From a virus: a stretch of DNA of 57,696 nucleotides. This document shows, piece after piece, positions 7,358 through 51,582 of this stretch. The position numbers and the translations under genes were made by a program. The notes under the pieces were generated by a model. That model worked only from the letters and a program-made list of their open reading frames with translations. It did not search any database and was not told where the DNA came from. Positions within the stretch are counted from its first letter, which is position 1, and every line of letters begins with the position of its first letter. The stretch covers positions 1 to 57,696 of the IMG/VR virus record IMGVR_UViG_3300043493_000066; one strand, written 5' to 3'.

Positions 7358-9849
7358 GCGATCGCGGCGGCGTCGGCGTTGAGCGCGTTCACCAGGGCGC
7401 GCACCTGGTCACGCGGACCCATCAGTTGCGCAACCGGCCGGCCGTTGACCCGGATGTCGTGCATGACCATGTCCTGCCGCCCAGCGCCTTCGGGCCTGAC
7501 GATGCCGCCCTCGGCGAGCGCGCGCACTAAGGTCCCGCCCATGGCCGCGAACATCCGGCGCGTATCCGGAGCGCTGTAGACCTGTGCCGGCGACAGGAAC
7601 CGAACGAGCTCTGGCCCTTCTTCGCCTACCAGCGCCAGACCGCTCGCGCGGCCGCCGCGGGCGAATCCCGGCACACCGCCGCCGGCGATGTTCGGCTGCA
7701 GGTTGACCTTGAACTCCTCGCGCTCGATCGCGCTGCGGATGGAGCTGACCAGGCTGCTGAGGGAGGTTTGATCGGCGCGGATCTTGACGTCGGACAGCGC
7801 GTTGTCGCTGATCGACGCGAGCTCCTGCTTGAGGTTGGTCAGCTGCTCGGCGACAGCCTCCGATCCCTTCTTCGCGTCCTCGGCGATTGACTTGGCTGCC
7901 GTCTTTTGCGCGCCGAGCCCCTGCTCGAACAGCCGCTGGTTGTCCTCGAGGAAGTTCCTGCCGAGCGCCACGAAGCCGAGATCGCCGAGCTCCTTCGCCA
8001 GGCGCTGACCCTCGGAGAAGAACTCCCTCTGCTTCTCGATGTTGCCGGTCAGGACCGCGTTTCGAAGGTTCCCCTCGTTCTCGAGCGCACGGATCCGGAG
8101 CGAACCCGCCTTCTGCTCGTCGGTGAAGCCCGCCTCGTCGATCTGGCGGACGAGCTCTGCCGTGGACTTGCGCGAGTCGGCGAGCTGCTTGTCGAGCTGG
8201 AGGATCTGCGCCTGGTTCGTCTTGTAGACGTTGAGGTAATCGTTGTTCCTGGCGATCAGGTTGTCGTACAGGCGCTGACCGGACTGGATCAGCTCGACGT
8301 TGGCCTTCGTCCCCATGTCGCCCCGCGCGCGGGAGAGCTTCGACTCGGTCTCGAACGCGTTCTGGGCGGCCGCCACGCGGCGATCGATCGACTGGATCTC
8401 GGCGCGCTCGAGCTCGCGCTGGCTGGCCAGGAGGTTGCCCGTCGATGCGAGCCGTGCCTGGGTGGCAGCGAGATCCGCGGCGATGCCCTTCTCGATCGCG
8501 TTCTGCGAGGCCTTCGCGACCAGGTCGATCAGCTTGATCTGCTCGTTCGCGGCCTCGGCGCCGATGAACTCGAGCTTCGGCTTCTGCGTCTCCTGCTTCG
8601 CCTCCTCGCCGGCGCCCGCGACGATCGTCTTCGCCGTCGCCGTGCCGATCGACATGATCCGCTCCTGGAAGCGGTCTAGCTCCTTGCGCGCGCGATCGGC
8701 GTCCTCCTTTACCGCCTCGCTGATCGCGTTGAAGGTCTTGAAGTCCAATCTCTGCAGGGCTTGAAACTGAGCTGCAATGGCCCCGATCTCACGACCGACC
8801 CCGACGAACACGAAAACGACGTCGGAGCCGAGAACGGCGATCGTTTGGAAGACGTTGATGACGGCGCCCAGAGCGGCCTTCAGGACGTCGGAGGCGGACG
8901 CCGCGTGCTCCTGGTCCTTTGCCAGGTCTGCGATCGTTTGTTTAAACGCGTTGAGCTGTGGGAGGAGGTCGAGGGCGATGGCCTGCGCGTGCAGGCTGAT
9001 CTGGGCGGAGAGCTTCTTTTGCCGGTCGGAGTACTCGTCGGCGAGCTTGATCTGCTCGTCGGTCAGGATGCTCTGCAGGCCTACGCCGCTCGCGAGCTCC
9101 TTCAGGAACGGCAGCGCTTCGGCGCCGGATTTGCCGAGAAGGGCAGTGGCGACGGCGGACTTGTCTGCGCCCTCGGCGTATTGCTCGAGGGCCCTGGCGA
9201 TCGTGAGGAAGCGCTCGACGGGCGACTGCCGCTTCACCTCCTCGATGTTCAGCCCGAGCGTCGCGATCGCCGCGCCGGCTGCAGAGGATTCGTCGTCGAC
9301 CCCGGTCAGGTTCTTCGTCAGCTTGTTCGCCAGGGTGGCGAGCGTGTCCATGCTGATGTTGCCGACCGAAGCGGAGACGGCAAGCGATGCGACGTTCGAC
9401 GCGGTGTCGCCGATCTTCTCGGCCAGGTCCTGGAAGTTGCCGGCCTTGTGGATCAGCTGGTCGAACGCTGCCGCGGCCGCGATCGAGCCGGCGACGGCAA
9501 CGGTGCCGAGAAGCGCGAACCCTGTCCTCACCGACGCAAGAGCAGCGGCGTTCCGCTCGTGCGACTCGGTCAACCGCAGCGCGGTGTCCGCGGTCTTCAG
9601 CTGCTCGTTCGATGCGCCGCGCAGCGCGAGGCGATAGAGCTCGGTCTCGCGCGCCGACTTCCCGATCGTGGCGTTGTGCGCCTGCAGCCGCCCGATGTAC
9701 TGGTCGATCGAGCGCGACGCGGCCGTGCTGATGTCCTTCTGTCCCTCGCCGAGCGTGCGAATCGACTTCTTCGCGTCCTCGACGCCGGCGCGCAGTTTTC
9801 GAGAGTCGGCAACGAGCTCGATTACACCGCGGCCGATCACATCGCTCAT
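7354..9849 (-). CDS. Tail tape measure protein (831 aa)
   Basis: Long alpha-helical A/L/Q/E-rich ORF directly after the G/GT chaperone. Start set at ATG 9849 (MSDVIGRG...), which overlaps the stop of the T frame (ATGA). Confidence 0.85.
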   Translation of the reverse strand: MSDVIGRGVIELVADSRKLRAGVEDAKKSIRTLGEGQKDISTAASRSIDQYIGRLQAHNATIGKSARETELYRLALRGASNEQLKTADTALRLTESHERNAAALASVRTGFALLGTVAVAGSIAAAAAFDQLIHKAGNFQDLAEKIGDTASNVASLAVSASVGNISMDTLATLANKLTKNLTGVDDESSAAGAAIATLGLNIEEVKRQSPVERFLTIARALEQYAEGADKSAVATALLGKSGAEALPFLKELASGVGLQSILTDEQIKLADEYSDRQKKLSAQISLHAQAIALDLLPQLNAFKQTIADLAKDQEHAASASDVLKAALGAVINVFQTIAVLGSDVVFVFVGVGREIGAIAAQFQALQRLDFKTFNAISEAVKEDADRARKELDRFQERIMSIGTATAKTIVAGAGEEAKQETQKPKLEFIGAEAANEQIKLIDLVAKASQNAIEKGIAADLAATQARLASTGNLLASQRELERAEIQSIDRRVAAAQNAFETESKLSRARGDMGTKANVELIQSGQRLYDNLIARNNDYLNVYKTNQAQILQLDKQLADSRKSTAELVRQIDEAGFTDEQKAGSLRIRALENEGNLRNAVLTGNIEKQREFFSEGQRLAKELGDLGFVALGRNFLEDNQRLFEQGLGAQKTAAKSIAEDAKKGSEAVAEQLTNLKQELASISDNALSDVKIRADQTSLSSLVSSIRSAIEREEFKVNLQPNIAGGGVPGFARGGRASGLALVGEEGPELVRFLSPAQVYSAPDTRRMFAAMGGTLVRALAEGGIVRPEGAGRQDMVMHDIRVNGRPVAQLMGPRDQVRALVNALNADAAAIA

Positions 9850-10166
9850 TCTTGATTCCTCATGGTTTCGAGGGCAGCCCCTTCGAGAGTGCGGATTGAG
9901 TCGAAGACTTCGGCGCGCTCGCTTGCCGGTACGCCCACCAGGCGCATTACGGACTGGAGCACCGCGTAATCGAGACCCGTGCGACCAGCCATCGAGGTCC
10001 GCCACTGCGTGCTCATGGCGTTGAACACGCACACCGCCAGCCAGTTATCCGGCCAGACCTCGACTGGCGGTCCCTGCGCTTCCTCGAGCGTCAGCCCGAT
10101 GCGCTTCGCTTCCTCGGCGGTAGGCGGCACCGTATAGAGCGCAGCGCCTACCGCTTTCAGTTTTTT
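9846..10166 (-). CDS. Minus-1 frame extension of the tail assembly chaperone (gpT-like part of the G-T fusion)
   Basis: The -1 frame reads KKLKAVGAALYTVPP...WPDNWLAVCVF..QW..GLDY, which resembles DUF1799/gpT. It has no start codon of its own near the slippery site. Confidence 0.75.
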   Translation of the reverse strand, partial: KKLKAVGAALYTVPPTAEEAKRIGLTLEEAQGPPVEVWPDNWLAVCVFNAMSTQWRTSMAGRTGLDYAVLQSVMRLVGVPASERAEVFDSIRTLEGAALETMRNQE

Positions 10167-10471
10167 ACGCGCGCTCCGAGCAGCTCGTTGACGTAGGTCC
10201 GATACGTCGCGACCGCGGCGCCGCCGTAGATCTCGAGGAACAGCGTCACCGATTCCTTGGTGAACGGATCCTCGAGTTCCCACGCAGTGACCATCTCCAT
10301 GAACGATTCGGCGTCGGCCTTCTCGGAGCGGGACTTGATCCATGCATCCAGCTCCGACTTCGTCCGATGCTTGAACGTCATTTCGACGTCGACGGCAGTG
10401 CCCCCAGCTACCGGTACCGGCACCTTCCACTTGAAGCTGGGGTTCGCTTCTAGCTTGAGCTTGGTGGCCAT
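10157..10471 (-). CDS. Tail assembly chaperone (gpG-like, 104 aa)
   Basis: Lies between the tail tube and tape measure genes. Ends ...CGC GTA AAA AAC TGA, which includes the slippery heptamer. Confidence 0.8.
   Translation of the reverse strand: MATKLKLEANPSFKWKVPVPVAGGTAVDVEMTFKHRTKSELDAWIKSRSEKADAESFMEMVTAWELEDPFTKESVTLFLEIYGGAAVATYRTYVNELLGARVKN
10160..10166 (-). promoter_or_regulatory. Programmed -1 frameshift slippery heptamer A_AAA_AAC (G/GT)
   Basis: Minus strand reads GTA AAA AAC TGA. Slipping by -1 gives AAA AAA CTG AAA GCG, which is the 9846.. frame. Confidence 0.8.
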
Positions 10472-11223
10472 TACGCGGCGTACCGAACCGGCTCAGCGAG
10501 AAGCGACAGCGTCACCTCGACGGCCATGATCTGGTTCACCGTGAGGCTCGGCGTCTTGTTCAGCGAGACGTACGCGTTGTAGAGGATGATCGCGCCGCTC
10601 GGCAGCGTGATCCGCACGGCGCGCGGCAGCCGGTCATCGTTCGCCTCCGACGCCAGGATGTAGCCCTGGAGCGCCGGATCGTCAGCGATCTGGAAGGAGA
10701 GGCCCGCCGGCGACTTGAAGGTCGGGATCCGCTTCGCCGCATCCGCCTCGAGCAGCTGGTACTCGAGGAACTGCTGCTCGCCGCCGCTGGATGCGCTACT
10801 CAGGATCTGCGCGAGCTGCTGCCAGCCCGTGATCTCGCGGATCGTGCCAACACCTTCGCCGGCCGGATAGATGCTGGTCAGCGTCGTGTCGATGCCCTCG
10901 AGCGGTACGTCGTTCGTCGCGACCGTCCCGGCGCGCACGACCTTGTCGGTGAGACGCGACCATCCAGAGGTCACTTCGATGAACTCCCCGGTCGCGACTC
11001 CGTGCGCGGCTTCCAGAGTGGCGACGCCTGGGTCGGCGTTGGAGAGTGCCGTAATGTCCTTCGGAGAGCCGTAGCCAGATGCCAGCGCGACGAGCGAGCC
11101 GTTCGGCAGGCTGATCAGGTTGAGCATGAGGCCGACGCGCGACATGTACGCGACCAGCTGATCGTGGGCCATCTCCGCAACGAAGCGGAGGTACTGCTTG
11201 ATGCGCAGACAGAACGATTTCAT
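10471..11223 (-). CDS. Major tail tube protein (250 aa)
   Basis: Position is upstream of the chaperone. AAGGAG lies 8 nt before ATG 11223. The call rests on position and size. Confidence 0.65.
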   Translation of the reverse strand: MKSFCLRIKQYLRFVAEMAHDQLVAYMSRVGLMLNLISLPNGSLVALASGYGSPKDITALSNADPGVATLEAAHGVATGEFIEVTSGWSRLTDKVVRAGTVATNDVPLEGIDTTLTSIYPAGEGVGTIREITGWQQLAQILSSASSGGEQQFLEYQLLEADAAKRIPTFKSPAGLSFQIADDPALQGYILASEANDDRLPRAVRITLPSGAIILYNAYVSLNKTPSLTVNQIMAVEVTLSLLAEPVRYAA

Positions 11224-11253
11224 TTGCGAGACTCCTTCGTGGATGGGACAGGC

Positions 11254-11278
11254 ACAAAAAAGCCACCCGGAGGTGGCT
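11254..11278 (-). terminator. Rho-independent terminator-like hairpin (AGCCACC-tccg-GGTGGCT + T6)
   Basis: Minus strand reads agccacctccgggtggcttttttgt, between the DUF3168 gene and the tail tube gene. Confidence 0.6.
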
Positions 11279-11312
11279 GGGACTTTTGCCCCGCGAGGGG
11301 CGAACTGCTACT

Positions 11313-11666
11313 TCAACCGACGAACGAAAAATCCTGACGCGAGCCGTAGAGACCTGTTTCCTCGTCGTGCTGCGACACTGGCTCGCCTTCGACTGTTGTT
11401 TGAAGCGCGGTGACTGCGCGCAGGGCAGTTTCAGCCTGCTTCGACAGCGCCTTCGCCTTGATGCGGGTCTCTTCCCACACCGTGATCTGGAACCGCGGCA
11501 GTCCCTTGTCGGGCTGTGTGCCGTCGAGGAAATTGATCCCCGGCCCGCCGACCTGCTGGAAGGTGATGTACGGCGGCTTCGTTCCCACCGGCGCGTTGTC
11601 CGGATACACGCTGCTCTCCGCGACGAGCGTCTTCAGCGTGTCGAAGATCGACGACTCGATCGTCAC
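11313..11666 (-). CDS. Tail completion protein (DUF3168-like, 117 aa)
   Basis: Motif VYPDNAP..KPPYITFQQVGG, and position between the gp10-like gene and the tail tube gene. Confidence 0.65.
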   Translation of the reverse strand: MTIESSIFDTLKTLVAESSVYPDNAPVGTKPPYITFQQVGGPGINFLDGTQPDKGLPRFQITVWEETRIKAKALSKQAETALRAVTALQTTVEGEPVSQHDEETGLYGSRQDFSFVG

Positions 11667-12384: not shown

Positions 12385-13310
12385 ACGATGGCCCGGCGGC
12401 GATACGTGTCGAGCAGGCGATCGACGAACGGCAGCGCGATCGCGTTGCCCGCCATCAGCCCCTCAGGAGAGCGGTAGGCGGCCGCCACCTGGGCGCAGAT
12501 CCAGGTCCTGATCTCCGCCGGCACGCTCGAGCCGCCGGCGCCGTACCCGGCCGCAAAGCGGACGACGACCGCGCCCTCGACGCGCCTGGTCGACGGCCAG
12601 CTCTTCTCGAACGCCGGCCGCAGCCAGGCCGAGAGCAGCCGCTCCGGCTCGAGCACGTAGTCCGCGGAGTCCATCGTCTGCAGATCTCCGTCCTCGTCGA
12701 CGTACTTCACCGAGGTGATCGACGGCACCGGGAGCATGTCGATCTCGATCTCGCGGCAGAACGCGTCGAGCACGAGCTCCCAGGTCTGCGTGATCAGCGC
12801 CCGCCCGGTATCGCGCTCGGCGATGCGGCGGGCCGCGGTGATCAGCATCGCGAGCAGCGGGTCGCCCGCGGTGTTCGCGCTCGGCGCGCCGGCGCCGAGG
12901 CCCGAGTCCGCGACGTTGTCGGTGTAGACCGTCGTCGTGTTGTCGGCCAGCGTCGCGAGCAGTAGGAAGGTCGCGCCGCCGGCGGTCGTGCGATAGAGCT
13001 TCCGGCCGGTCACCAGCGCGCCGCCGATCGGGATCCCGGTGAGCTCGACCTTGCCGTTCACCGACTTGTTTGCCACGTTGACAGCGGCCGACACTGTGCC
13101 GGCTTGCGTCTCGCCGGCGGCCGTCGTGAAGGTGGCCAAGTACCGGTGCAGGCCGTTGTCCACGTTGCCGGCGATCGCGGGCGCGGCGAGCGCGGCCGTG
13201 AAGACGCCCGGCGCCGGCTCCTGGTTGCTCGAGTCGATCTTCGACCATGCCATGACCTCGGCCACGGTCACCGGTTCGGCAGCCGGTTCGGTGATGATCC
13301 TCAGCGTCAT
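12381..13310 (-). CDS. gp6-like head-tail connector protein with ~120-aa insertion (309 aa)
   Basis: N-terminus EPVTVAEVMAWSKID and the C-terminal part resemble the QLRG/gp6 connector family. The middle segment is extra. Confidence 0.65.
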   Translation of the reverse strand: MTLRIITEPAAEPVTVAEVMAWSKIDSSNQEPAPGVFTAALAAPAIAGNVDNGLHRYLATFTTAAGETQAGTVSAAVNVANKSVNGKVELTGIPIGGALVTGRKLYRTTAGGATFLLLATLADNTTTVYTDNVADSGLGAGAPSANTAGDPLLAMLITAARRIAERDTGRALITQTWELVLDAFCREIEIDMLPVPSITSVKYVDEDGDLQTMDSADYVLEPERLLSAWLRPAFEKSWPSTRRVEGAVVVRFAAGYGAGGSSVPAEIRTWICAQVAAAYRSPEGLMAGNAIALPFVDRLLDTYRRRAIV

Positions 13311-13906
13311 CAGGTCCTCTCGAACGCGAGCCAGGTGTTTGCGACGTGCACGATCGGCGCACCGCAGGCCGCGAGCTCGTCGAGCGTCTCGGAGACCTCG
13401 ACGGCCGCGAGGCCGTTGTCGTCGTGGAAGATGATGATCCCGCCCTTGCGCACGACCACTTTCGCCAGGTCGTAGTCGTTCAGCACGCCGGCGCGCGAGT
13501 GATCGGCGTCGATGAACGCGACGTCCGCGAGCGGCAGGTCATCGGGCGCCAGGTCGAACGCACCGCGCGGCCGCACGATCAGCTGGAAGCGCGGATCCGG
13601 CTTGGCGTACTTGCCGGGCTCCGCCGGCACTTCCTTCCTCTGGCACTCCCTGATCGTCACGTAGCCTGGCAGCACGTCGATTCCGACGTAGCGCTCGATC
13701 GACGGCACGTTGAGCAGCAGAGTCGCGGCCGCCCGGCCCTCGTTGCAGCCGAACTCGATCACCGTGCGCGGGTCGACGCTCGAGACCAGCGCGACCAGGC
13801 GATCGAGCTCGCCCGGGTTGAAGAACCGCGGCGGGAACTCCGGCAGCCTCGCAGCCGGCGCGTCCATCCTGATCGTCTGCCTGCTCGTTTTCGGTTGCGC
13901 TAGCAC
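13310..13906 (-). CDS. Class I SAM-dependent methyltransferase (CmcI/O-MT-like, 198 aa)
   Basis: Motif I VIEFGCNEGRAA, plus VAFIDADHS and GGIIIFHDD. GTG 13906 is preceded by AAGGGA. Confidence 0.7.
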   Translation of the reverse strand: MLAQPKTSRQTIRMDAPAARLPEFPPRFFNPGELDRLVALVSSVDPRTVIEFGCNEGRAAATLLLNVPSIERYVGIDVLPGYVTIRECQRKEVPAEPGKYAKPDPRFQLIVRPRGAFDLAPDDLPLADVAFIDADHSRAGVLNDYDLAKVVVRKGGIIIFHDDNGLAAVEVSETLDELAACGAPIVHVANTWLAFERT

Positions 13907-14856
13907 AGCATCCCTTTCACGGCTCCAATGACCCCCGCTTCATCCGGATAGGTCGGTCTCGAAAATGTTGGCTCCCACTCGGCCAGATCTGTGAACCGCA
14001 CGCTGGCCAGGCCGAACGGCTCGCAGGTCATCGCCCGCGAATCGATCGCCGCGATCGCGACGGCCGCGCCCACGCTCGCCGCGGGAATGGCCGCATGCAC
14101 TCGCAGCGTGAAAACCCGGCCGGCCCTGGCGAAGACTCTGAGCAGCGACGCCGGATCCGTGATGAGCTCAGGCGCGAACCCGTTTAAACGAGCCCAGTCG
14201 TAGTCGCCCCACGTCGGCGCGATCACGCGCAGCCGCCCCGCCATCCTTTCCGCGACGCGGTGCAGCGCGCCGGCGAACCACTCGTGTTCGCTTCGATGAA
14301 CGAGCAGCACGTCCCAGTCCGCTGTGCCGGCCGTCACGCAGTACTCCGGCGCCGCCCACCAGCTCGAGCACGGAAGCAGGATGGAGCTCACGCCCGCCTC
14401 TTCGTAGATCCGCTGCATCGTGCGATCGCGCGCGATGTGATGCGGGAACGACTTCGCCATCCTCAGATAGCGCCGGCGAAACGGCTCCGCCGCGATCGCC
14501 TCCGCCATCTCGTCAATGCTCGGCCACGGGTCGGCGTACGGATACGAAGATCCCGCCCACCCGTCGATCACCCGGACGCCTGCCGCGTGCAGGTTAAGCA
14601 GCCGCAACCAGATCCGGTTCTCCCAGAACTCGTCGCCCTTCGACATCGAGAAGCGAGGGTTGCCGCACAGCACGACGCGATCGCACGCGGCCGCGGCACG
14701 CCAGTCGTCCGGCCGGTCCTGCAGCATGGCGATGTTCACGAAGACCGCCTCGGGAACCGCGGCGCGCACCAGCCAGCGGATCCCCGCGGTGATCAGATGC
14801 CATCCAGGATTGCCCGTGCTACTTATTTCGACCGGCGTGATCAGGCCGACGCGCAC
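13900..14856 (-). CDS. Polysaccharide pyruvyl-transferase-like / glycosyltransferase-like protein (318 aa)
   Basis: GTG 14856 follows GAGGAGG. Has STGNPGWHLITAG near the N-terminus and VFTLRVHAAIPAASVGAAV near the C-terminus (PS_pyruv_trans-like). The upstream part of the track ORF is R-rich. Confidence 0.5.
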   Translation of the reverse strand: MRVGLITPVEISSTGNPGWHLITAGIRWLVRAAVPEAVFVNIAMLQDRPDDWRAAAACDRVVLCGNPRFSMSKGDEFWENRIWLRLLNLHAAGVRVIDGWAGSSYPYADPWPSIDEMAEAIAAEPFRRRYLRMAKSFPHHIARDRTMQRIYEEAGVSSILLPCSSWWAAPEYCVTAGTADWDVLLVHRSEHEWFAGALHRVAERMAGRLRVIAPTWGDYDWARLNGFAPELITDPASLLRVFARAGRVFTLRVHAAIPAASVGAAVAIAAIDSRAMTCEPFGLASVRFTDLAEWEPTFSRPTYPDEAGVIGAVKGMLC

Positions 14857-16408
14857 AAGCCTCCTCGATGAACGATTGAGCCCGCGCAATCGCGTGCGGC
14901 ATGTCGATCCGCTTGTCGCACGCGTGCGTGTGGCTCCAGCACGGGCACGGGCTGATCGGCTCGATCGGCAGCCACGGCGTGACCCGCGCGCCGGCGGAGA
15001 ACGACTTCGCATCCTCGTACCCGCCGAAGACCGTGATCGCCGGCGTGCCCACGGCCTGCGCCAGCAGGACCGCGAAGCCAGGCGCCGAGAACGCGAGCGC
15101 CGCTCGATCGAAGAGCCCGGTCAGCACCTCGAAGTCGAGCTCGCCGGCGTGATACTCGACGTCCGCCTCGAGCTGCGGCCCGACCGTCCATTCGACATCC
15201 GGCACCAGGTCAGCCACCGACACCAGGAAGAACCGGTCGCGGATCGCCTGCAGGATCTCGACGTACGCGTCTGGATCCGGGTTCCTGGTCGTCGCCCCGC
15301 CCCACTCCTTGCGCGCAACGAGCGGCCTGTAGACCAGGATCTGGCGCTTCGTACGGAAGAGCGCATCCGCCTTCTTGCGCCAGGCCTTCGGCACGGGCAT
15401 CCGGAAGTCGCCCACCGGCACACCGCACACCTCGGACATCGCGCCAAGCACCGAGCCGGTCGCCTTCACGCGCATCGGCGAGTAGCTCGGCCTGATCTCC
15501 GGCGTGCCCGCCGGCGCCTTGCCGCCGCGGTACAGCTCGGCCGATCGCGCCTCATTCTTCGCCTGCGTTCGCAGGTTCGACAACACGGGCAGCAGGTGCA
15601 GCTGCGGCATGTCGTGGTAGATCTGCGGCCAGGGCGTCTTCAGCCACACCTCGTGCCGGCGCATGAGCTCGCGCACGACCGAGCGCTGGTGCAGGTTGTC
15701 ACCCATGCCGGACATGCCGTGCAGCACCAGCGGCGCCTTGGCGGGTTTCAGCGCCCGCTCGAGCGGCAGCTGCTCGAAGCAGGTGATCGCCGTGCGGCGC
15801 GTCGCATTGACGACCTGCACGCCATTCGCGCGCAGATCCGCCCCGAGCTGCACCATCAGCCGCGTCCATTCCGGCAGCGTCCCGAGGTTCGGCAGCCCGC
15901 CCTCGTGATCGCCGTGGAAGTGGCTCTCGTTCTTCGGGCCGCGCTGCATGTCGTACCCGAGCAGGATGTCGCGCGCGCAGCCCCAGTGATACACCAGGCC
16001 GAGCGCCATGTAGCCGCTGTTCTTGCCGAAGTGCACGCGCCCTGGCTTCGTGCAAAGGCCGACACCATCGACTACGACTTCAACGAATTTCAGCTTCGCG
16101 CGAACGCGGGCAGATACGGGGCCCCATTGCGCGCCGAGCGCGCCGCCGATGTCAGCGGCCGCCCACAATTCGCCGGCGAACGTGTCGAGCGCCTCGTCGC
16201 CATAAACCGCCCACCAATGCGGATCAGCGGCGAAGAGCACATCAGCCCACAGCGCCTTCCTGAACGTCGTGCCTACGACGACTACGTGACGGTCTTGCGG
16301 CGCCTCGAGGGCCCACGCTCTGACGAGCTCGACGTCGCGGTCGGTGAGGCTTGGGCCACTTGCGATGCAGACGACAGTCGACCCAGCCCATCGTCCGGTG
16401 CTTTTCCC
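14819..16408 (-). CDS. Body (frame B) of a Maf/DUF115-like + GT9 heptosyltransferase-like fusion transferase, reached by -1 shift from 16599..16402
   Basis: VVCIASGPSL...VVVVGTTF...ADPHWW resembles the Maf/CstII type. LVLHGMSGMGDNL...AVLLAQAVGTPAITVFGG resembles GT9. Frame B has no plausible start, and GC3 is low upstream of the heptamer. Confidence 0.6.
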   Translation of the reverse strand, partial: GKSTGRWAGSTVVCIASGPSLTDRDVELVRAWALEAPQDRHVVVVGTTFRKALWADVLFAADPHWWAVYGDEALDTFAGELWAAADIGGALGAQWGPVSARVRAKLKFVEVVVDGVGLCTKPGRVHFGKNSGYMALGLVYHWGCARDILLGYDMQRGPKNESHFHGDHEGGLPNLGTLPEWTRLMVQLGADLRANGVQVVNATRRTAITCFEQLPLERALKPAKAPLVLHGMSGMGDNLHQRSVVRELMRRHEVWLKTPWPQIYHDMPQLHLLPVLSNLRTQAKNEARSAELYRGGKAPAGTPEIRPSYSPMRVKATGSVLGAMSEVCGVPVGDFRMPVPKAWRKKADALFRTKRQILVYRPLVARKEWGGATTRNPDPDAYVEILQAIRDRFFLVSVADLVPDVEWTVGPQLEADVEYHAGELDFEVLTGLFDRAALAFSAPGFAVLLAQAVGTPAITVFGGYEDAKSFSAGARVTPWLPIEPISPCPCWSHTHACDKRIDMPHAIARAQSFIEEACARRPDHAGRNK

Positions 16409-16599
16409 GCTTCTCCCACGATGGCCGCAGCTCCGGCCACGCGCAACACCTGGTCGACCCGGCGATTCACGACCCGGACCAGGCCCCGCTTCTCCAAGTC
16501 CGCCGCCGTCCTCTCGTCGATCATGACCGCGCGCCCCTGATGGGCGTCGATGCGATCGTGCAGGAAGCTCGTCAGCGGTACGCACTCAACTTGCATGAA
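16282..16599 (-). CDS. Frame A upstream ORF (105 aa if not shifted); its first 66 codons form the N-terminus of the fusion
   Basis: ATG 16599 follows GGAG. GC3 is high and composition natural up to the GGGAAAA site, and poorer after it. Confidence 0.55.
   Translation of the reverse strand, partial: FMQVECVPLTSFLHDRIDAHQGRAVMIDERTAADLEKRGLVRVVNRRVDQVLRVAGAAAIVGEAGKAPDDGLGRLSSASQVAQASPTATSSSSERGPSRRRKTVT
16402..16408 (-). promoter_or_regulatory. Candidate -1 frameshift heptamer G_GGA_AAA joining frames A and B
   Basis: Minus strand reads GCG GGA AAA GCA (frame A) and GGG AAA AGC ACC (frame B). Phasing was checked against both ORF coordinates. Confidence 0.5.
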
Positions 16600-16630
16600 T
16601 CGGCGCTCCAGTGATCGTTTAAACGCAGAG

Positions 16631-28582: not shown

Positions 28583-28612
28583 GATCGTTTCTCCTCGTTT
28601 AAACGCTGCTGT

Positions 28613-38195: not shown

Positions 38196-38469
38196 AGCGC
38201 TGGCGGCCCTGCTCGGGCTGCTCGCGCTCACGATCGACGCCGGCGCCGCGCAGCGTAGCAGTAAGGCGCGGATCGAGTTCCTCCGCAGCAACCCCTGCCC
38301 TTCAACTGACAAGACCCGCGGGCCCTGCCCTGGCTATGTGATCGACCACGTCCGTCCCCTGTGTGCTGGTGGTGAGGATCGGCCAGCCAACATGCAATGG
38401 CAGACGATCGCGGCCGCGAAGGAAAAGGACCGCGCCGAGCGGGAAAGTTGTAGAACTAGGCGGCAATAG
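38188..38469 (+). CDS. Secreted small HNH/His-Me finger-like protein (93 aa)
   Basis: Signal peptide MSRALAALLGLLALTIDAGAA, and GYVIDHVRPLCAGGEDRPANMQWQT. Confidence 0.6.
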   Translation: MSRALAALLGLLALTIDAGAAQRSSKARIEFLRSNPCPSTDKTRGPCPGYVIDHVRPLCAGGEDRPANMQWQTIAAAKEKDRAERESCRTRRQ

Positions 38470-39265: not shown

Positions 39266-39402
39266 GCGACGACGAAGTGATCCAGCGCACTCGGGAATGG
39301 ATAGCCGAGAACAGAGCGCGGCCGCGGCAGGAGTTCGTCGCCGCGGTCCTCGTCATTGTCGGCCTGGCGATCACCGTCGGGCTTTTCCTGGTGTTCCGAT
39401 GA
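39262..39402 (+). CDS. Small TM protein (46 aa)
   Basis: GTGA overlap. Sequence FVAAVLVIVGLAITVGLFLVF. Confidence 0.45.
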   Translation: MSDDEVIQRTREWIAENRARPRQEFVAAVLVIVGLAITVGLFLVFR

Positions 39403-39578
39403 GGCTGCCGCGTTCCATCCTGGATCGGGCGTTCGAATACACGCCGAGCGCGAAGACCGATCTCAAGCGCACGTTTAAACGCATTCGCCGCGAGCATCTC
39501 GAGGACCAGCAGCGCGACGCGGCGAACGCGCAGGAAGCGCAGGACAAGGTCAAGCAACTCAAGGGGACGAAGACGTGA
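39399..39578 (+). CDS. Small basic protein (59 aa)
   Basis: ATGA overlap. Sequence MRLPRSILDRAFEYTPSAKTDLKRTFKRIRRE. Confidence 0.5.
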   Translation: MRLPRSILDRAFEYTPSAKTDLKRTFKRIRREHLEDQQRDAANAQEAQDKVKQLKGTKT

Positions 39579-41613: not shown

Positions 41614-41615
41614 TC

Positions 41616-47757: not shown

Positions 47758-48049
47758 TACAGCACCGCCGTATCTGACGGACGAGGAGATCGAGTTCATC
47801 ACGCGGCCGCGCACGCAAGGCGCGGCGCGCCTTCGCTACTTTCGCGACGTGCTGAAGGTACGGGCGGAGCCACGGCCGAACGGGCAGCCGCTCGTCTGGC
47901 GGTCGGACTTCGAGACAACCCGCCGACGCGAGCAGGATGCAGCCAATGACGGCCGTACGCCATCCAGAGATTGGTCTGCGTTCGAGAAAAAGGTACGCTA
48001 TGAGGACGGTGGGGAGAAAACGGAAAGACGGCAACCCGCTCGGGCTTGA
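47744..48049 (+). CDS. DUF4224-like protein, excisionase candidate (101 aa)
   Basis: YLTDEEIEFITRPRTQGAARLRYFRDVLKV...NGQPLVWRSDF. Lies directly upstream of the integrase. Confidence 0.55.
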   Translation: MPVANTAPPYLTDEEIEFITRPRTQGAARLRYFRDVLKVRAEPRPNGQPLVWRSDFETTRRREQDAANDGRTPSRDWSAFEKKVRYEDGGEKTERRQPARA

Positions 48050-49094
48050 GCGGCGGGTCGAGTTCCATCACGGTCAGTTCCGGTATCTGCACCGGGACGG
48101 TCGGAAGGAATCGCTCGGTGCGGATCTGAAGCGCGCGAACCAGCGCGCCAGGCTGTACAACGATCCTCGAGAGGACTACGGGACGGTCGGCTACTACCTC
48201 GAGCTGTTCCTCGCGGACGCGCGCGCTGGGCGACTGCCCGCCGGCAGGAAGCTCTCGGAGCGCACGATCGCGGACTACGACTCGGAGACGGCGAACATCA
48301 AGATCTCGCCGATCGGCAAGCTGCTTCCGACCGAGATCGTGCTCGAGCCCAACCTGCTGTCCGAGTACCGCGATCGGCGTGTCAGCGACGAAGGCAAAGG
48401 CCAGGTGCAGGCGAACCACGGCCTCGCGCTCCTGTCGTCGATGTTCTCCTGGCTGATCGAGAAGGGGCACTGCCCGGGCCTGCTGGTGAACCCGGTCAAG
48501 GCCATCAAGCGATTCGCGCGCCGGCCGAAGGATCGTTACGTCGAGGACCACGAATACCAGCCGGCCTACGTCGAGGCGATCGCGAGCGTGAGGATGGCGA
48601 TGGCGCTCGTCTACAGCACGCTGCAGCGCCCGTCCGACGTGCTGGGCCTGCCGCCCTCGCCCGCGCGCGCGAAGACCGTAGCGGGCAAGCAGAAGCGGAT
48701 CCTGCCGGTGCGGCAGTCGAAGACGGGTCGCACCGTCGACATCGAAGTTACGCCCGAGCTCGAGCAGATGCTCGGCATGCTCGCGCCTGCGCCGGAAGAG
48801 AAGGTGGTGAAGCTGCCGACGGCGCTCGTCCACGGCCGCGGCGGCAAGCCGTACACCGAGGACGGCATGGCAGCGATGCTGCGCCGCTACTGCATCAAGG
48901 CGAAGGTGCGCCCGTTCGGGTTGATGGACGTGCGCGCGAAGGGCGCGACCGACATGTACCTGCGCGGCGTGCCGCTCGAGCAGATCCAGATGCTCATGGG
49001 ACACAAGTCGGTGCAGACCACGGAGATCTACATCAAGCGGCTACTCGGCACGATCTCGACGGTCGCTCCGAACAGCGTTGCGGTGGGGAATTGA
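48000..49094 (+). CDS. int: Tyrosine integrase (364 aa; alternative start 47937)
   Basis: C-terminal catalytic region ..RAKGATDMY..GVPLEQIQMLMGHKSVQTTEIYIKR. Adjacent to attP. Confidence 0.9.
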   Translation: MRTVGRKRKDGNPLGLERRVEFHHGQFRYLHRDGRKESLGADLKRANQRARLYNDPREDYGTVGYYLELFLADARAGRLPAGRKLSERTIADYDSETANIKISPIGKLLPTEIVLEPNLLSEYRDRRVSDEGKGQVQANHGLALLSSMFSWLIEKGHCPGLLVNPVKAIKRFARRPKDRYVEDHEYQPAYVEAIASVRMAMALVYSTLQRPSDVLGLPPSPARAKTVAGKQKRILPVRQSKTGRTVDIEVTPELEQMLGMLAPAPEEKVVKLPTALVHGRGGKPYTEDGMAAMLRRYCIKAKVRPFGLMDVRAKGATDMYLRGVPLEQIQMLMGHKSVQTTEIYIKRLLGTISTVAPNSVAVGN

Positions 49095-49319
49095 TGCTGC
49101 AAGTTGTTGAACGTGCGTCTCTTGACACGCGGGAATCAGCGCAGATTTATTCCCCGCTCTATACAGAGAATCCCCGCTGCACCGGCACGTTATACAGATT
49201 TCGAACTTGGACTGTTAATCCGCAGGTCCCAGGTTCGAGCCCTGGTCGGGGAGCCAATAATCAATCGCTTAGCGCAGCGCGCAGTTTCGCATTTCGCAGA
49301 ATTTTCCCCAGTGGGGAAT
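49085..49319. repeat. GGGGAAT / ATTCCCC repeats flanking the attP core (candidate integrase arm-type sites)
   Basis: ggggaat at 49085 and 49313, gggaat at 49131, attcccc at 49149, aatcccc at 49169. Palindrome ttccccaGtggggaa at 49304-49318. tccccgct and tatacaga each occur twice. Confidence 0.45.
49209..49256 (+). other. attP core: 3' ~48 nt of a tRNA-Asn(GTT) gene including CCA
   Basis: ggactGTTaatccgcaggtcccaggttcgagccctggtcggggagcca closely matches the anticodon loop, T-arm and acceptor 3' strand of bacterial tRNA-Asn. No matching 5' half lies upstream. Confidence 0.7.
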
Positions 49320-49326
49320 ATCGGGG

Positions 49327-49524
49327 ATGAAGCTCTTCAAGATCCAGGTGCAGTTCACGTATCGGCGCGCCGGCCGCACCGGCGCCGAGGTGATCGTGCA
49401 TGCGCGCTCGAGCGCGGCCGCGGAGAAGCTCGTGCAGAGGAAGTTCCCGAAGTGCGAGATCAGCAAGGCGCTCGACCTCGGCCCGACGCCGAAGCACTTC
49501 GTGATCGCCGACCTGCTGGACTAG
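49327..49524 (+). CDS. Hypothetical small protein (65 aa)
   Basis: Very high GC3 and natural composition. Converges on the Mom-like gene, with stops sharing CTAG. Confidence 0.6.
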   Translation: MKLFKIQVQFTYRRAGRTGAEVIVHARSSAAAEKLVQRKFPKCEISKALDLGPTPKHFVIADLLD

Positions 49525-50318
49525 TTCGCCTTAGGGTACGGCAGATTAGTCCACGCCGGCCGCCGGCGCTGATCGCCGAGCCACCAGGTGTACGTGTGGT
49601 TCCCAGGATGGCGCACTGCCTGGAATCCGCCCTCCTCCAGCGCGCGCGCCACGTAGCCGTGTCCCGTCTCGAGCGGCCGCCGATCGGGCGCACCCAGAGC
49701 TCGCAGCTGGTCGTAGGCATACCCTGCCCCGCTCTCGTCGTTTCTCAGCTTCGACATCGCGCGGCCGTCGACCACGCGGCCGTCTCGAGAGAGGACCATC
49801 AGCTGCGCGCGTGAGCGGCCGCGGTAGGACGCGTTCAGCGCCTGGTACACGGTGCCGACGTGACCGCGTTTGACCACGCGGCCGTCCGCGTCGATGCGCT
49901 CGAGCGGATCCGAATAGGACAGCACGCCGTCGATGCTCTTCCGCGGCCGCAGCAGGCGGAAGGCGCGCGCAACGAACCACGACTCCGCGTTCGCGGCGAC
50001 TTGATCGAGCAGCACGAGACGCGCGAGCACGGCGCCGGCGTTCGGCTCGAGCCCCTCGAAGTACTTCGGCACGATCGCCTGATGCACGGGCCCGGCGAAG
50101 ATTGCAACGCCCACAAGCTCGTCGCGCTCGAACCTGCCCTTCACGAATAAGCCGGCGCTGAATCGCGCGGCCGGGAACGTGCCGGCATAGTGATGGCGAA
50201 CGGTGAAGGCCTTCGCGATATCCCGGCCGATCTCGTCGACCGCCGCGCGACTGGTGTCGAAGACCTCGCCTGCAGGCCGGTAGCGCGGCCGGCGATCGCG
50301 CCAGCGTTGGCAGATCAT
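49521..50318 (-). CDS. Mom-like / GNAT-fold putative DNA-modification protein (265 aa)
   Basis: VRHHYAGTFP...LVGVAIFAGP...LARLVLLDQVAANAESWF...GVLSYSDP...GHVGTVYQALNASYRG pattern, recalled from Mom-family methylcarbamoylation proteins. Not verified by a search. Confidence 0.45.
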   Translation of the reverse strand: MICQRWRDRRPRYRPAGEVFDTSRAAVDEIGRDIAKAFTVRHHYAGTFPAARFSAGLFVKGRFERDELVGVAIFAGPVHQAIVPKYFEGLEPNAGAVLARLVLLDQVAANAESWFVARAFRLLRPRKSIDGVLSYSDPLERIDADGRVVKRGHVGTVYQALNASYRGRSRAQLMVLSRDGRVVDGRAMSKLRNDESGAGYAYDQLRALGAPDRRPLETGHGYVARALEEGGFQAVRHPGNHTYTWWLGDQRRRPAWTNLPYPKAN

Positions 50319-50494: not shown

Positions 50495-50535
50495 TCGCTT
50501 CTCCTTTGGCCCCTGAATCCCCCGAGGCGCGGGGC

Positions 50536-50604
50536 TGGAGCTAGAGGGACTCGAACCCTCGGGGAACTGGATCTAGAGCCCGTCCCCGGCACCTGCCTAG
50601 CCCC
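50536..50604 (-). ncRNA. tRNA-Ala-acceptor minigene 1 (69 nt), non-canonical core, loop CUCUAGA
   Basis: GGGGCTA...GAGGG-TTCGAGT-CCCTC-TAGCTCC-A. The acceptor has G3:U70 and A73. There is no normal D-arm. A long interrupted hairpin is capped by a 7-nt loop. Confidence 0.5.
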
Positions 50605-50616
50605 GTGTTTGGGGTG

Positions 50617-50683
50617 TGGAGCTAGAGGGACTTGAACCCTCGAGGTTTGGTTTTTAAGACCTACCTCACGACCTGTTAGCCCC
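50617..50683 (-). ncRNA. tRNA-Ala-acceptor minigene 2 (67 nt), non-canonical core, loop CUUAAAA
   Basis: GGGGCTA...GAGGG-TTCAAGT-CCCTC-TAGCTCC-A. Same acceptor and T stem as minigene 1. Lies about 19 nt downstream of the predicted transcription start. Confidence 0.5.
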
Positions 50684-50709
50684 TTCGGTACTGCCTTGCT
50701 ACGGTTCTA

Positions 50710-50738: not shown

Positions 50739-50807
50739 GCACTATTTACGGCCTCCAGGCACCGTTCTACATAGCGGAATACCTGTAAATTACCCTTTCG
50801 CAGGTAC

Positions 50808-50836
50808 TTGACACATGCACATGATATGTGTATCGT
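50808..50836 (+). promoter_or_regulatory. Promoter TTGACA-N17-TATCGT with CACAT-N3-ATGTG in the spacer
   Basis: Plus strand reads TTGACAcatgCACATgatATGTGTATCGT. Confidence 0.6.
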
Positions 50837-50898
50837 GTGACCCGTAGCTTGAAGCTACACCCGCGCCTCGGGGGTCAGGGGCCAGGAAAGGCAAGCAG

Positions 50899-51582
50899 AT
50901 GAAAACCTTCACACACGAGCAGTACATCCAGGCAGTCCGCGACATCGCAGTGCAGCGCCTGAGCGCCGAAGAGCGCGCGGCCGCGCTTGACGCGAAGCTC
51001 GTCTACGGCGCCGGCTCGAAGCACACCCGCGGCGTGACGTACTTCGGCTGCTGGAAGAACGGCCACGATCACGCCTTCGCCGAGATCTGCGCGTTCGGCG
51101 AGGATTCCCCGATTCAGGTCGCGGGCACGACGCTGCACGAGCTGGGCCACGTTCTGGCCGGGCTTGGCAAAGGTCACGGCAAGGGCTGGCTGGCCGCGTG
51201 CAAGCGCCTCGGCCTCAACTACGTCCGCGCCGCCGGCACGCAGTACTCGCTCGCCTGCTTCGCAGCCGACATCCGCGAGGCGATCGCCGCGCTGCCCTCC
51301 CCGACCGATGGCCAGCCGCAACCCTTCGGCGGCTTCGGCCCGAACGGCATGCCGATGCAGCTGAAGATCCGCCCCTGCGGCGCCGGCCTCGGCACCAAGG
51401 GCGGCAAGTCGCGCGGCGCCGGTTCGGGCTCGCGCCTTCGCAAGTTCGTTTGCGATTGCGGCGTGATCGCCCGCGTGGCGCGCGACGAGTTCCGCGCCAA
51501 GTGCGACGACTGCGGCTCTTCGTTTAAACGCGTGGACCCGAAGCAGCCCGAGGTCTCGCAGACGGTGCATGACCGAGTCTGA
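50899..51582 (+). CDS. SprT-like HExxH zinc metallopeptidase with C-terminal zinc ribbon (227 aa)
   Basis: TTLHELGHVLAG, and KFVCDCGVIARVARDEFRAKCDDCGSSF. Confidence 0.6.
   Translation: MKTFTHEQYIQAVRDIAVQRLSAEERAAALDAKLVYGAGSKHTRGVTYFGCWKNGHDHAFAEICAFGEDSPIQVAGTTLHELGHVLAGLGKGHGKGWLAACKRLGLNYVRAAGTQYSLACFAADIREAIAALPSPTDGQPQPFGGFGPNGMPMQLKIRPCGAGLGTKGGKSRGAGSGSRLRKFVCDCGVIARVARDEFRAKCDDCGSSFKRVDPKQPEVSQTVHDRV

Follow-up and report, generated by a model that had tools for sequence, protein, structure and literature searches.

A very rare 8-base palindrome, GTTTAAAC, has been written eight times, mostly by silent codon changes, into the phage genome analysed here (IMG/VR record IMGVR_UViG_3300043493_000066, 57,696 nucleotides, referred to below as the window), and the same palindrome recurs in unrelated phages sharing one uncharacterised SprT-like zinc-ribbon protein. 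It thus looks like an undescribed system consisting of a protein and its DNA site, although the binding of the one to the other is inferred, and the reading, while the best available, remains tentative and somewhat short of even odds.

The palindrome is located at exactly 8940, 14182, 16617, 25708, 28597, 35597, 39473 and 51522, i.e. eight times against 0.08 expected from dinucleotide shuffles, none of 100 shuffles having reached eight. All eight TTTAAA present in the window, whose GC content is 65.5%, lie inside these sites, and six of the sites extend to CGTTTAAACG, which is the most over-represented 10-mer under both order-1 and order-3 Markov models. The Markov expectations for the 8-mer are 0.057 (order 1), 0.013 (order 2) and 0.15 (order 3); orders 4–5 yield 1.3–5.7, but it should be pointed out here that those models are fitted largely to the sites themselves. 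One-mismatch variants are not enriched in the window, and the flanks of the sites are unrelated, so that this is not a repeat family. The same sites are carried by Logan contigs assembled independently from one sample (SRR35197312). The observation made in the sequence-only reading has therefore been confirmed.

Concerning the individual sites, six of them are found in coding regions. The site 8940–8947 (TTGTTTAAACGC) is positioned within the tape-measure gene (7354–10032, minus strand), with the codons GCG TTT AAA CAA (A-F-K-Q). The site 14182–14189, of the form CGTTTAAACG, belongs to the minus-strand ORF 13900–15012 (CGT TTA AAC; R-L-N), in a segment of ~960 bp absent from the closest relatives, the loci L001 and L002. 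The site 25708–25715 (CGTTTAAACG) lies in the GH19 endolysin gene (25645–26262, minus strand; CGT TTA AAC GGG; R-L-N-G), 63 nt before the stop. The site 35597–35604 (GTTTAAAC) occupies the HTH-coding part of the ParB-like gene (34485–36050, minus strand; GTG TTT AAA CGC; V-F-K-R), whereas 39473–39480 (CGTTTAAACG) is in a small plus-strand ORF of 59 aa (39399–39578; T-F-K-R), for which the strand call is less certain, the alternative minus-strand ORF reading R-L-N. The site 51522–51529 (CGTTTAAACG) is located in the gene 50899–51582 (TCG TTT AAA CGC; S-F-K-R), immediately after the last zinc-ribbon Cys; it is conserved at the same codons in the homologues from the loci L267, L268, L269 and L273, and is positionally equivalent to a site (GTT TAA AC) spanning the terminal valine and stop codons (V-stop) of the marine homologues. 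The remaining two sites, both CGTTTAAACG, are intergenic. The one at 16617–16624 lies 6 nt after the hairpin following the capsid gene and 8 nt before the GGAG of the next minus-strand gene; L001 and L002 have no site here and carry an extra gene for 214 aa. The one at 28597–28604 lies directly 5' of the Shine-Dalgarno sequence of the gene 28274–28582 (minus strand: AGC GTTTAAAC GAGGAG N9 ATG), the same arrangement being found at position 6437 of the locus L042.

The interpretation offered in the sequence-only reading is only partly supported. Its inference that selection acts on the DNA itself, and not on the protein, holds: of 24 places where the proteins allow the motif to be encoded synonymously, 6 carry it, against 0.04 expected in a codon-aware null, and three of the genome's 13 TTA codons lie in the sites. 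In the ParB-like gene, the conserved V-F-K-R is encoded by GTG TTT AAA CGN in the window and in the loci L042 and L045, but by GTS TTC AAG CGC in four other close homologues (L040, L041, L250 and L251). The candidate readers it proposed, on the other hand, are not supported. The ParB-like protein is a genuine ParB/Noc-type protein, but the four homologues just mentioned, with nearly identical HTH regions, sit on 48.5 kb with zero sites, four more distant homologue loci (L034–L037) have none either, neither ParA nor a canonical parS is present, and the motif-rich phages have no ParB homologue. Homologues of the multi-HTH protein occur in the motif-less loci L040, L041, L254, L257 and L270. As for a modification or nicking motif, no DNA methyltransferase or restriction enzyme is recognisable in the phage, only a Mom-family protein and a small HNH being present, although modification as such may still occur, and a host nucleoid-protein site, the host being unidentified, stays conjectural. 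That reading also did not notice that one of the sites lies in the gene (50899–51582) of the protein family co-occurring with the motif elsewhere.

Outside the window, 39 viral loci of 35–65% GC are motif-rich, containing 399 sites against about 7 expected (about 59-fold), while one-mismatch variants are only 1.6-fold enriched and there is no consensus beyond a weak C...G flank. By contrast, 1.3 Mb of bacterial chromosomal loci (80 loci) holds 4 sites against 12 expected, and 37 relatives fetched by capsid or ParB similarity show no enrichment of GTTTAAAC, all those of at least 60% GC having zero or one copy. The one protein family shared between the window and the motif-rich loci is phrog_6361; no other window protein has a homologue there. 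The product of 50899–51582 (plus strand; 227 aa) hits this PHROG at E = 2e-11, and the family most shared among the motif-rich loci hits it at E = 3e-44 and 7e-13. The window protein combines an SprT-like HExxH zincin domain (HELGH...GH), a disordered Gly/Arg-rich linker (GGKSRGAGSGSRLRK) and a C-terminal 4-Cys zinc ribbon, and its gene is the first one of a small operon next to the Mom-family gene and attP. The invariant residues of the family are HExxH..GH, the basic linker and four Cys, the ribbon being kept also in those marine members that have lost HExxH. Fold and profile matches point to SprT-like proteins, albeit weakly, since the window protein scores below the SprT-like threshold of Pfam (13.1 against 25.6 bits) and the best PDB fold match has E = 0.17.

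A hidden Markov model of the family hits 21 loci, all with sites, and 0 of 207 loci that are not motif-enriched, but since these loci were chosen by motif, the test is biased; moreover, the marine motif-rich loci are related to each other and do not represent independent counts. A further 32 motif-enriched fragments show no family gene, which, as they are short, is uninformative either way. Loci were therefore also fetched by the protein alone. Of these, L262 has 17 sites, L265 has 8 and L266 has 5, with GTTTAAAC as the top palindrome in each. The close homologues of the window gene 50899–51582 contain 8 sites against 0.34 expected in 106 kb, 7 of them inside the family gene, and the only GenBank phage with a homologue (MW202512, a complete genome) has 9 sites against 0.56 expected, one of them lying 12 nt upstream of its sprT-like gene. 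Overall, 10 of 14 loci carry sites, 13 of these sites lying in or adjacent to the family gene, including the window's own site 51522. Five of the 14 loci are significantly enriched also elsewhere, against 1 of 49 controls (Fisher p = 0.0015), and on an any-site test the ratio is 9 of 13 against 1 of 37 (p = 3e-6). With the exception of L267, L270 and L272, these loci share with the window nothing else or only one or two genes. It should be noted that four of the 14 (L263, L264, L270 and L272) have no site, L270 and L272 being relatives of the window phage, and that in five loci the only sites lie inside the family gene, so that shared descent of that gene sequence could explain part of the association. 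The positions in or beside the family gene are stereotyped: at the stop codon (V-stop) in 13 marine loci, 37–65 nt upstream of the start, and at codon ~20 and codon ~208 in the high-GC clade.

Based on the above results, the eight palindromes are most likely the cognate double-stranded DNA sites of the phrog_6361 member that the phage itself encodes at 50899–51582. What the analysis has demonstrated is that the sites are exact and far above chance, that in coding regions they were created by synonymous codon choice, that they are present or absent per genome among relatives, that the same 8-mer is enriched in otherwise unrelated phages carrying this family, and that the family's own gene almost always carries a site at or near its 3' end and often a second one near its 5' end. 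Everything concerning binding and function, however, is inferred from correlation only: the protein would bind the palindrome, probably as a dimer, with the ribbon and the basic linker reading the G/C-flanked AT core; the sites in or next to its own gene would serve autoregulation; and the extra ones, spread over all transcription units, would tether the protein along the phage DNA. By analogy with the DNA-dependent SprT-type proteases SPRTN and ArdC, the tethered protease would then act on proteins bound to or moving along that DNA, in a role that could be counter-defence or regulatory. Against this view, SprT-type proteases are not known to be sequence-specific, no site or near-site lies in the 400-bp region upstream of the window's own gene, and the benefit to a phage of eight sites rather than one or two is left unexplained.

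Among the alternatives, a host-driven iterated palindrome—i.e. a genome signature of the host, created or maintained by a host methyltransferase, a repair bias or a nucleoid protein, towards which the temperate phage would have drifted, its motif-less relatives infecting other hosts—is unlikely but the least so. The motif is an exact 8-bp palindrome, independent of position, in and between ORFs and made through synonymous codons, which are the properties described for HIP1 (Elhai 2015, PMC4390886; Xu et al. 2018, PMC5861425); it is all-or-none among close relatives, and the phage is temperate, having an integrase and a tRNA-Asn-derived attP core, and lacks a cognate methyltransferase. The co-occurrence with a phage-encoded family across 35–67% GC and across unrelated phage backbones is, however, hard to reconcile with one host signature; in several phages the only sites are inside that gene, the bacterial chromosomal loci show depletion instead of enrichment, and in the marine phages the sites are dense in the early region but absent from the terminase and structural region, a pattern that is not genome-wide amelioration. 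Less likely still, the palindrome might mark the ends of a mobile cassette with the SprT-like gene and other module junctions, used by some site-specific nuclease or recombinase, the dispersed copies being exchange points that promote mosaicism. The family gene is indeed bracketed by two sites in many loci, site 16617 lies in an indel junction relative to L001/L002 and site 14182 in a segment they lack, the Shine-Dalgarno-adjacent site is found between different flanking genes in the window and in L042, and in about 9% of the strand-wise tests (74 of 798) in the marine loci the TAA of the motif closes a long open frame. Nevertheless, six of the eight sites lie inside conserved coding sequence and were made by point substitutions, the homology with L042 ends about 70 bp from site 28597 and not at it, the two sites of the high-GC clade are inside the ORF instead of flanking it, and no conserved nuclease or recombinase partner has been found.

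The ParB/KorB-type reading, with the ParB-like CTPase/HTH protein loading at the eight palindromes, one of them in its own gene, for partition, condensation or global repression in the manner of the KorB operators on RK2 or the dispersed centromeres of N15, is doubtful. The protein does have ParB_N and HTH_ParB with hits to the Noc, PRTRC ParB and parB_part models, one residue after the recognition helix (DAS-R/K-ALL) is R in the three motif-bearing ParBs and K in four motif-less ones, and both MW202512 and L268 encode a ParB. In addition to the motif-less homologues given above, however, P0052, which carries R at that position, is also motif-less, L042 and L045 share the same ParB segment and are not independent, the adjacent ATPase has a classical Walker A motif, the half-site spacing is 6 bp shorter than in parS or NBS, and in L268 the ParB gene has no site, both being in the SprT-like gene. 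Of about the same low likelihood are stoperator-like sites of the immunity repressor or of another small HTH regulator, such as the weakly HTH/repressor-like protein at 52221–52547, encoded in the same operon as the SprT-like gene next to attP and int; the SprT-like protein would then be an ImmA-like partner, and the sites, which are spread through all transcription units and mostly within genes, would block transcription through lytic genes in the lysogen. No site lies in the divergent switch region at 36.66–37.46 kb, however, a perfect palindrome cannot be oriented with transcription, no HTH partner is conserved with the family across clades, and the marine motif-rich contigs encode lytic-type replication genes and a sigma factor, with no repressor or integrase seen in the proteins scanned. 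Chance, compositional or assembly artefact, for which only the order 4–5 models speak, has been refuted by the shuffles, the Markov orders 1–3, the codon-aware null, the independent assembly and the conservation of the sites in other samples.

With regard to known systems, HIP1 and the alternate highly iterated palindromes of cyanobacteria (PMC4390886, PMC5861425) are likewise exact 8-bp palindromes, 15–300-fold over-represented in and between ORFs, conserved, without gene-level positional logic and accommodated by codon choice, but they are GC-rich chromosomal signatures tied to cognate orphan methyltransferases, whereas the present motif is AT-rich in a GC-rich phage encoding no recognisable methyltransferase, tracks a phage SprT-like protein across unrelated phages and has a low density in the window (1 per 7 kb). 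The stoperators of cluster A mycobacteriophages (L5 gp71) and the conserved inverted repeats of Streptomyces phage phiC31 also represent many copies of one short site for a phage-encoded protein spread across the genome, including inside genes; stoperators are, however, asymmetric 13-mers oriented with transcription and read by an HTH repressor that also binds the switch-region operator, while here the site is a perfect palindrome, is missing from the switch region and is associated with a protein that is not an HTH repressor. The KorB operators on RK2 and the centromere repeats of prophage N15 share the dispersal of about 4–12 palindromic sites over a replicon of 45–60 kb encoding a ParB-family protein, but in the present data set the ParB family does not co-vary with the motif, there is no ParA and an integrase is present. 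The DNA-dependent SprT-type metalloproteases, human SPRTN (PDB 6mdw) and plasmid ArdC (PMC7213743), the latter being an anti-restriction factor of a mobile element, join a zincin HExxH protease domain to a zinc-binding or DNA-binding module, but they bind single-stranded DNA or DNA junctions without known sequence specificity, no cognate site family has been described for them, and the membership of the window protein in this superfamily rests on weak scores. Finally, in Chi-rich lambdoid phages (PMC12315714), an exact host-specific 8-mer is over-represented in temperate phage genomes irrespective of coding context; Chi is, however, asymmetric, orientation-dependent, G-rich and abundant in the host chromosome, whereas GTTTAAAC is a palindrome depleted in the bacterial loci sampled.

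The observation on which the sequence-only reading rested, eight copies of an AT-rich palindrome in a high-GC genome, is confirmed in full, since GTTTAAAC occurs in the window exactly eight times and at exactly the positions claimed. Dinucleotide-preserving shuffles expect 0.08 copies, none of 100 shuffles having more than one, and every TTTAAA in the 57,696-bp window lies inside one of these sites, six of which extend to CGTTTAAACG. With the window being of 65.5% GC, Markov models of order 1–3 expect 0.013–0.15 copies, and CGTTTAAACG is the most over-represented 10-mer of the whole window under orders 1 and 3, whereas orders 4–5 give higher expectations only because their sub-word counts come from the sites themselves. 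The flanks of the eight sites are unrelated, so this is not a dispersed repeat. Two contigs assembled independently from the sample SRR35197312 carry the same sites, one of them running across the end-to-start junction of the window, so that the sequence is a circular or circularly permuted phage genome. It should be pointed out here that, under a first-order model, hexamers containing CCWGG (ACCAGG with 83 against 16 expected, ACCTGG with 74 against 16) are also strongly over-represented, as are the GC-rich palindromes CGCCGGCG, GCGGCCGC, GCGATCGC and GCTCGAGC; the latter are shared by relatives and therefore probably reflect general high-GC coding biases.

The genome is that of a temperate tailed phage. 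A long minus-strand transcription unit runs from about 36.6 kb down through position 1 and wraps to about 52.8 kb, covering ParB-like, replication, GH19 endolysin, HNH, terminase, portal, protease, capsid, a glycosyl/methyl-transferase cluster, tail and tape-measure genes. A plus-strand unit (37.5–49.1 kb) holds recombination genes and a tyrosine integrase, and a small accessory region (49.3–52.5 kb) lies next to an attP-like core. This core, at 49203–49256 and just downstream of the integrase (47937–49094), reads as the 3′ half (anticodon loop GUU to CCA) of a tRNA-Asn gene and is 90–95% identical over 42–51 bp to sequences in many Mycobacterium and Gordonia phages, most of them annotated under immunity-repressor genes; the Logan assembly breaks exactly here (about 49238–49355), which may mean that both integrated and free forms were present in the sample. 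Next to attP, at 49521–50318 on the minus strand, a Mom-family DNA-modification protein is encoded (PF25680, E = 8e-21; phrog_1384), so that this phage may modify adenines in its DNA. Two tandem tRNA-like elements (50533–50604 and 50614–50683, minus strand) occupy the 400-bp gap between the Mom operon and the SprT-like gene; they include a ~28-bp direct repeat resembling a T-arm plus acceptor end and match the two ends of the tmRNA model at 28–30 bits (threshold 47), while ARAGORN calls no tRNA in the window. The cluster directly after the capsid gene (13310–16585, minus strand) holds sialyltransferase-like, pyruvyl-transferase-like and SAM O-methyltransferase genes, suggesting virion glycosylation, and the window has there a ~960-bp extra segment (13900–14889) relative to the relatives L001 and L002, which instead carry an extra 214-aa gene between the capsid and the cluster.

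Concerning the sites themselves, four are read as F-K-(R/Q) and lie in the tape-measure gene, in ParB, in a 59-aa ORF and in the gene 50899–51582, two are read as R-L-N, in ORF 13900–15012 and in the endolysin, and two are intergenic, both just upstream of a Shine-Dalgarno sequence, one of these following the hairpin after the capsid gene. Given the encoded proteins and the codon usage of the genome, there are 24 places where the motif could be encoded synonymously, of which 0.04 are expected to be realised and six are; three of only 13 TTA codons in the genome lie in sites. In ParB the conserved V-F-K-R of the HTH is encoded as GTG TTT AAA CGN in the window, in locus L042 (68% identical protein) and in locus L045, but as GTS TTC AAG CGC in the loci L040, L041, L250 and L251 (66–74% identical), the difference being purely synonymous, although L042 and L045 share the same central ParB segment and thus count as one lineage. 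One-mismatch variants are not enriched in the window (three sites, at the expected level). A start-associated or translation signal was also considered, but 2 of 8 sites being intergenic against 8% non-coding DNA gives only p = 0.13. The central inference of the sequence-only reading, that selection acts on the DNA itself, is therefore supported.

The interpretation as a whole is supported only in part, because the readers proposed for the sites, the ParB-like or the multi-HTH protein, do not hold. The ParB-like protein is a real ParB/Noc-type protein with an N-terminal CTPase domain and a sequence-specific HTH (PF02195 at E = 4e-26, PF17762 at E = 3e-13, TIGR00180 at 125.8 bits against a cut-off of 58). 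However, homologues with almost identical HTH regions lie on four contigs totalling 48.5 kb with no site at all, and four more distant homologue loci also have none. There is no ParA, the only nearby ATPase (33149–34093) having the classical Walker A motif GPSGIGKT instead of a deviant one, with weak HerA/AAA hits; no canonical parS is present within 3 mismatches; and the only residue segregating with the motif, R/K in DAS-x-ALL, is also R in a motif-less homologue. A scan of isolate genomes for prophage relatives returned only distant chromosomal ParBs. The multi-HTH protein occurs in many motif-less relatives. It belongs to a conserved replication-type module (window 30826–36050, as well as the loci L040, L041, L254, L257 and L270), arranged as (ParB), ~132 aa, a 314-aa P-loop ATPase, (128 aa), a ~640-aa protein with several excisionase-type HTHs, and DUF1376 or DnaB; ParB is optional in it, some ParB homologues carry a C-terminal SWIB/MDM2 domain (PF02201), and in L257 a DGR-type reverse transcriptase plus bAvd sits just upstream of the module.

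A 128-aa ORF at 32769–33152, 87% identical between the two motif-bearing contigs, shared only by them and absent from L040 and L041, was rejected as well, since seven contigs with homologues (96 kb) have no site. As for a modification or nicking motif, no DNA methyltransferase or restriction enzyme is recognisable in any called gene of the phage, only the Mom-family protein and a sugar-type SAM methyltransferase being present. The small HNH protein (38188–38469, plus strand; 93 aa) shows an unusual combination of a hydrophobic, signal-peptide-like N-terminus and an HNH motif (IDHVRPLCAGGEDRPANM); it weakly matches HNH ORFs in three marine loci, with which only the generic HNH motif is shared. 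The closest relatives by capsid (87% amino-acid identity, 81–92% nucleotide identity) have no site, and no other enriched rare palindrome was found in the relatives examined, i.e. L001–L008, L034–L037, L263 and L264. No canonical parS and no operators in the switch region were found.

IMG/VR was scanned for the motif in two specific contexts, and 39 of the returned loci, spanning 35–65% GC, carry GTTTAAAC at extreme density, for example 29 copies in 13.3 kb and 8 in 4.1 kb at 62% GC. Pooled, these loci hold 399 perfect sites against about 7 expected, whereas one-mismatch variants are only 1.6-fold enriched and there is no consensus beyond a weak C...G flank. The sites lie in and between genes and are no closer to start codons than random positions are (16.4% against 16.6%); they are dense in the early/replication region and absent from the terminase and structural part, and they include triple intergenic clusters about 46 bp apart. 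A group of uncultured, mostly marine-type phage contigs (among the IMG/VR loci L136–L241, e.g. L154, L181, L194, L146/L230 and L216) carries the motif about every 400 bp in the early region and encodes a T7-gp4-type primase-helicase, amidoligase, glutamine amidotransferase, AAA_5 ATPase, CobT-like VWA protein and a sigma factor; in the high-GC members the motif sits at the centre of 10-nt-arm hairpins (GGAGGGCACC GTTTAAAC GGTGCCCTCC). No cultured relative of this group is closer than 33–49% identity, and Streptomyces phage Immanuel3 has 0 sites. For comparison, 1.3 Mb of bacterial chromosomal loci contains 4 copies against 12 expected. Literature searches for enrichment of GTTTAAAC, or of PmeI sites, in phages found no description of it.

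No protein of the window has a BLAST or phmmer homologue in these motif-rich loci apart from a generic HNH motif, and they lack ParB; at the profile level, however, there is one link. The gene 50899–51582, which itself contains the site 51522, matches phrog_6361 at E = 2e-11, and the protein family most widely shared among the motif-rich loci matches the same PHROG at E = 3e-44 and 7e-13. A family HMM hits 21 loci, all with sites, and none of 207 loci that are not motif-enriched. Since those loci were chosen by motif, the test was repeated on loci fetched by protein alone. With the family alignment, L262 has 17 sites (p = 1e-27), L265 has 8 and L266 has 5, each with GTTTAAAC as the top palindrome, L261 has one site, inside the gene, and L263 and L264 have none. 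With the window protein, seven loci of 63–70% GC (106 kb) have 8 sites against 0.34 expected, 7 of the 8 lying inside the roughly 680-bp family gene. The only GenBank phage with a homologue (MW202512, complete, 44.4 kb) has 9 sites against 0.56 expected, one of them 12 nt upstream of its ‘sprT-like’ gene; this phage (MW202512.1, our locus L274) is also annotated, at 11150–11572, with a PacI-like beta-beta-alpha-metal HNH restriction endonuclease fold—PacI cutting an 8-bp AT-rich palindrome—but this has no similarity to the HNH of the window. Overall, 10 of 14 protein-ascertained loci carry sites, and 13 sites lie in or next to the gene; five loci are also significantly enriched elsewhere, against 1 of 49 control phage loci (Fisher p = 0.0015), and on an any-site test it is 9 of 13 against 1 of 37 (p = 3e-6). 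Most of these loci share no other gene with the window.

The positions within the family gene are stereotyped. In 13 marine loci the gene ends with V-stop, which reads GTT TAA AC, and many have a second site 37–65 nt upstream of the start. In the high-GC clade the sites sit at codons ~20 (R-L-N) and ~208 (F-K-R), right after the last zinc-ribbon cysteine; the site 51522 of the window is the latter and it is conserved in the homologous loci L267, L268, L269 and L273. F-K-(R/Q) is the commonest ending after the invariant Phe in 32 homologues, although the Lys itself is not conserved, which fits a constraint acting on the DNA.

The family has more than 500 homologues and no Pfam assignment in the precomputed tables. 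Its invariant features are HExxH...GH, a basic Gly/Ser/Arg-rich linker (GGKSRGxGSGSRLRK) and four cysteines, with H80, E81, H84, G92 and H93 being invariant in the 32 homologues, although some marine members have lost HExxH and keep the ribbon. Against the SprT-like profile PF10263 the window protein scores 13.1 bits, below the gathering threshold of 25.6, the member in L265 scores 33.8 bits (E = 3e-8) and thus passes it, and other members score 13–20 bits. The AF2 model (pLDDT 84) has a zincin-type alpha/beta domain, a disordered linker and a small ribbon. Its best PDB match is the SprT domain of human SPRTN (6mdw), a weak one at E = 0.17 and TM 0.30–0.36; DNA-binding ribbons such as the Mcm10 C-terminal domain also appear among the matches, and BFVD matches are SprT-like phage proteins with E = 2e-4 to 1e-2. 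A sequence search against the PDB found nothing below E = 0.4, and no partner gene next to the family is conserved across clades.

Based on the above results, the finding is real and better than the sequence-only reading had supposed, although for a different reason, the likely partner being neither ParB nor the multi-HTH protein but the small SprT-like zinc-ribbon protein encoded at 50899–51582. What the analysis establishes is that a rare exact palindrome is under DNA-level selection in this phage, that it is all-or-none among relatives, and that the same palindrome tracks one phage protein family across unrelated phages and marks that family's own gene. What is inferred, on the other hand, is that the family protein binds the palindrome, that the sites in its own gene are autoregulatory, and that the dispersed sites tether a DNA-dependent protease along the genome. 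Four family-bearing loci have no site, two of them being relatives of this phage; in five loci the sites are only inside the gene, so that descent may explain part of the signal; the marine loci are related to each other; and there is no site upstream of the window's own gene. The reading that the sites are the cognate sites of this protein is thus the one we prefer, yet only tentatively and at somewhat less than even likelihood, and any specific function is much less certain still.

Of the alternatives, each appears less likely than this reading. A host-driven signature of the HIP type remains possible although unlikely; the exact palindrome is strongly over-represented both within and between ORFs, as such a signature would require; no DNA methyltransferase family is found in any called gene of the phage, a result that leaves out the enzymes of the host. 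Cassette or recombination sites are somewhat less likely again, and ParB, for the reasons already discussed, is doubtful to a still greater degree, as is a stoperator-type HTH regulator, since no site lies in the switch region at 36.66–37.46 kb. Chance is all but excluded. At the more speculative end, and unlikely on present evidence although not excluded by it, GTTTAAAC could be the address of a sequence-specific, DNA-anchored SprT-like protease, in which case a widespread but undescribed phage family would use a zinc ribbon and a basic linker to dock on an 8-bp palindrome and would autoregulate through sites in its own gene. In some phages it would be distributed along the genome by dozens of selected sites, so that it could proteolyse host proteins that bind or translocate on phage DNA, such as restriction enzymes, silencers or SMC-type defences; if so, this would be the first sequence-addressed protease on DNA.

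To our knowledge, and within the searchable literature, the pairing of motif and protein is undescribed, and it turns a statistical oddity into a testable pair of one protein and one site. If the protein binds the motif, a large family of ‘hypothetical proteins’ would gain a function, a new type of dispersed-site system in phages would be added, and a DNA-tethered protease with a counter-defence or regulatory role could be revealed. From the practical point of view, GTTTAAAC is the PmeI site, so that phages of these groups will be cut many times by a nominally rare cutter, and motif density could serve as a marker for this system in viromes.

With regard to known systems, the ParB-parS and KorB-type partition or operator systems share with this phage a genuine ParB protein, but here neither a cognate ParA nor co-occurrence of the site with the ParB is found. 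Stoperator-type repressor sites are asymmetric, oriented with transcription and present at the lysogeny switch operator, whereas the motif is a perfect palindrome with no site in that region. In type II restriction-modification of the PmeI type the same element encodes the restriction enzyme and/or the methyltransferase and the sites are normally avoided, while in this phage no such genes are found—the small HNH showing only the generic motif—and the sites are enriched. Chi-type recombination hotspots are asymmetric, orientation-dependent and frequent in the host chromosome, whereas the motif is a palindrome that is depleted in the 1.3 Mb of bacterial loci, a sample leaving out the actual host. 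The nearest described phenomenon is the HIP1 palindrome of cyanobacteria, and over-represented exact palindromes such as HIP1 have stayed unexplained for decades, partly because no reader protein is known; here one 8-mer is tied, across unrelated phages and a 30-point GC range, to a single small phage protein family with a predicted SprT-like protease domain and a DNA-binding-type zinc ribbon, the family's own gene carrying the site at a fixed place.
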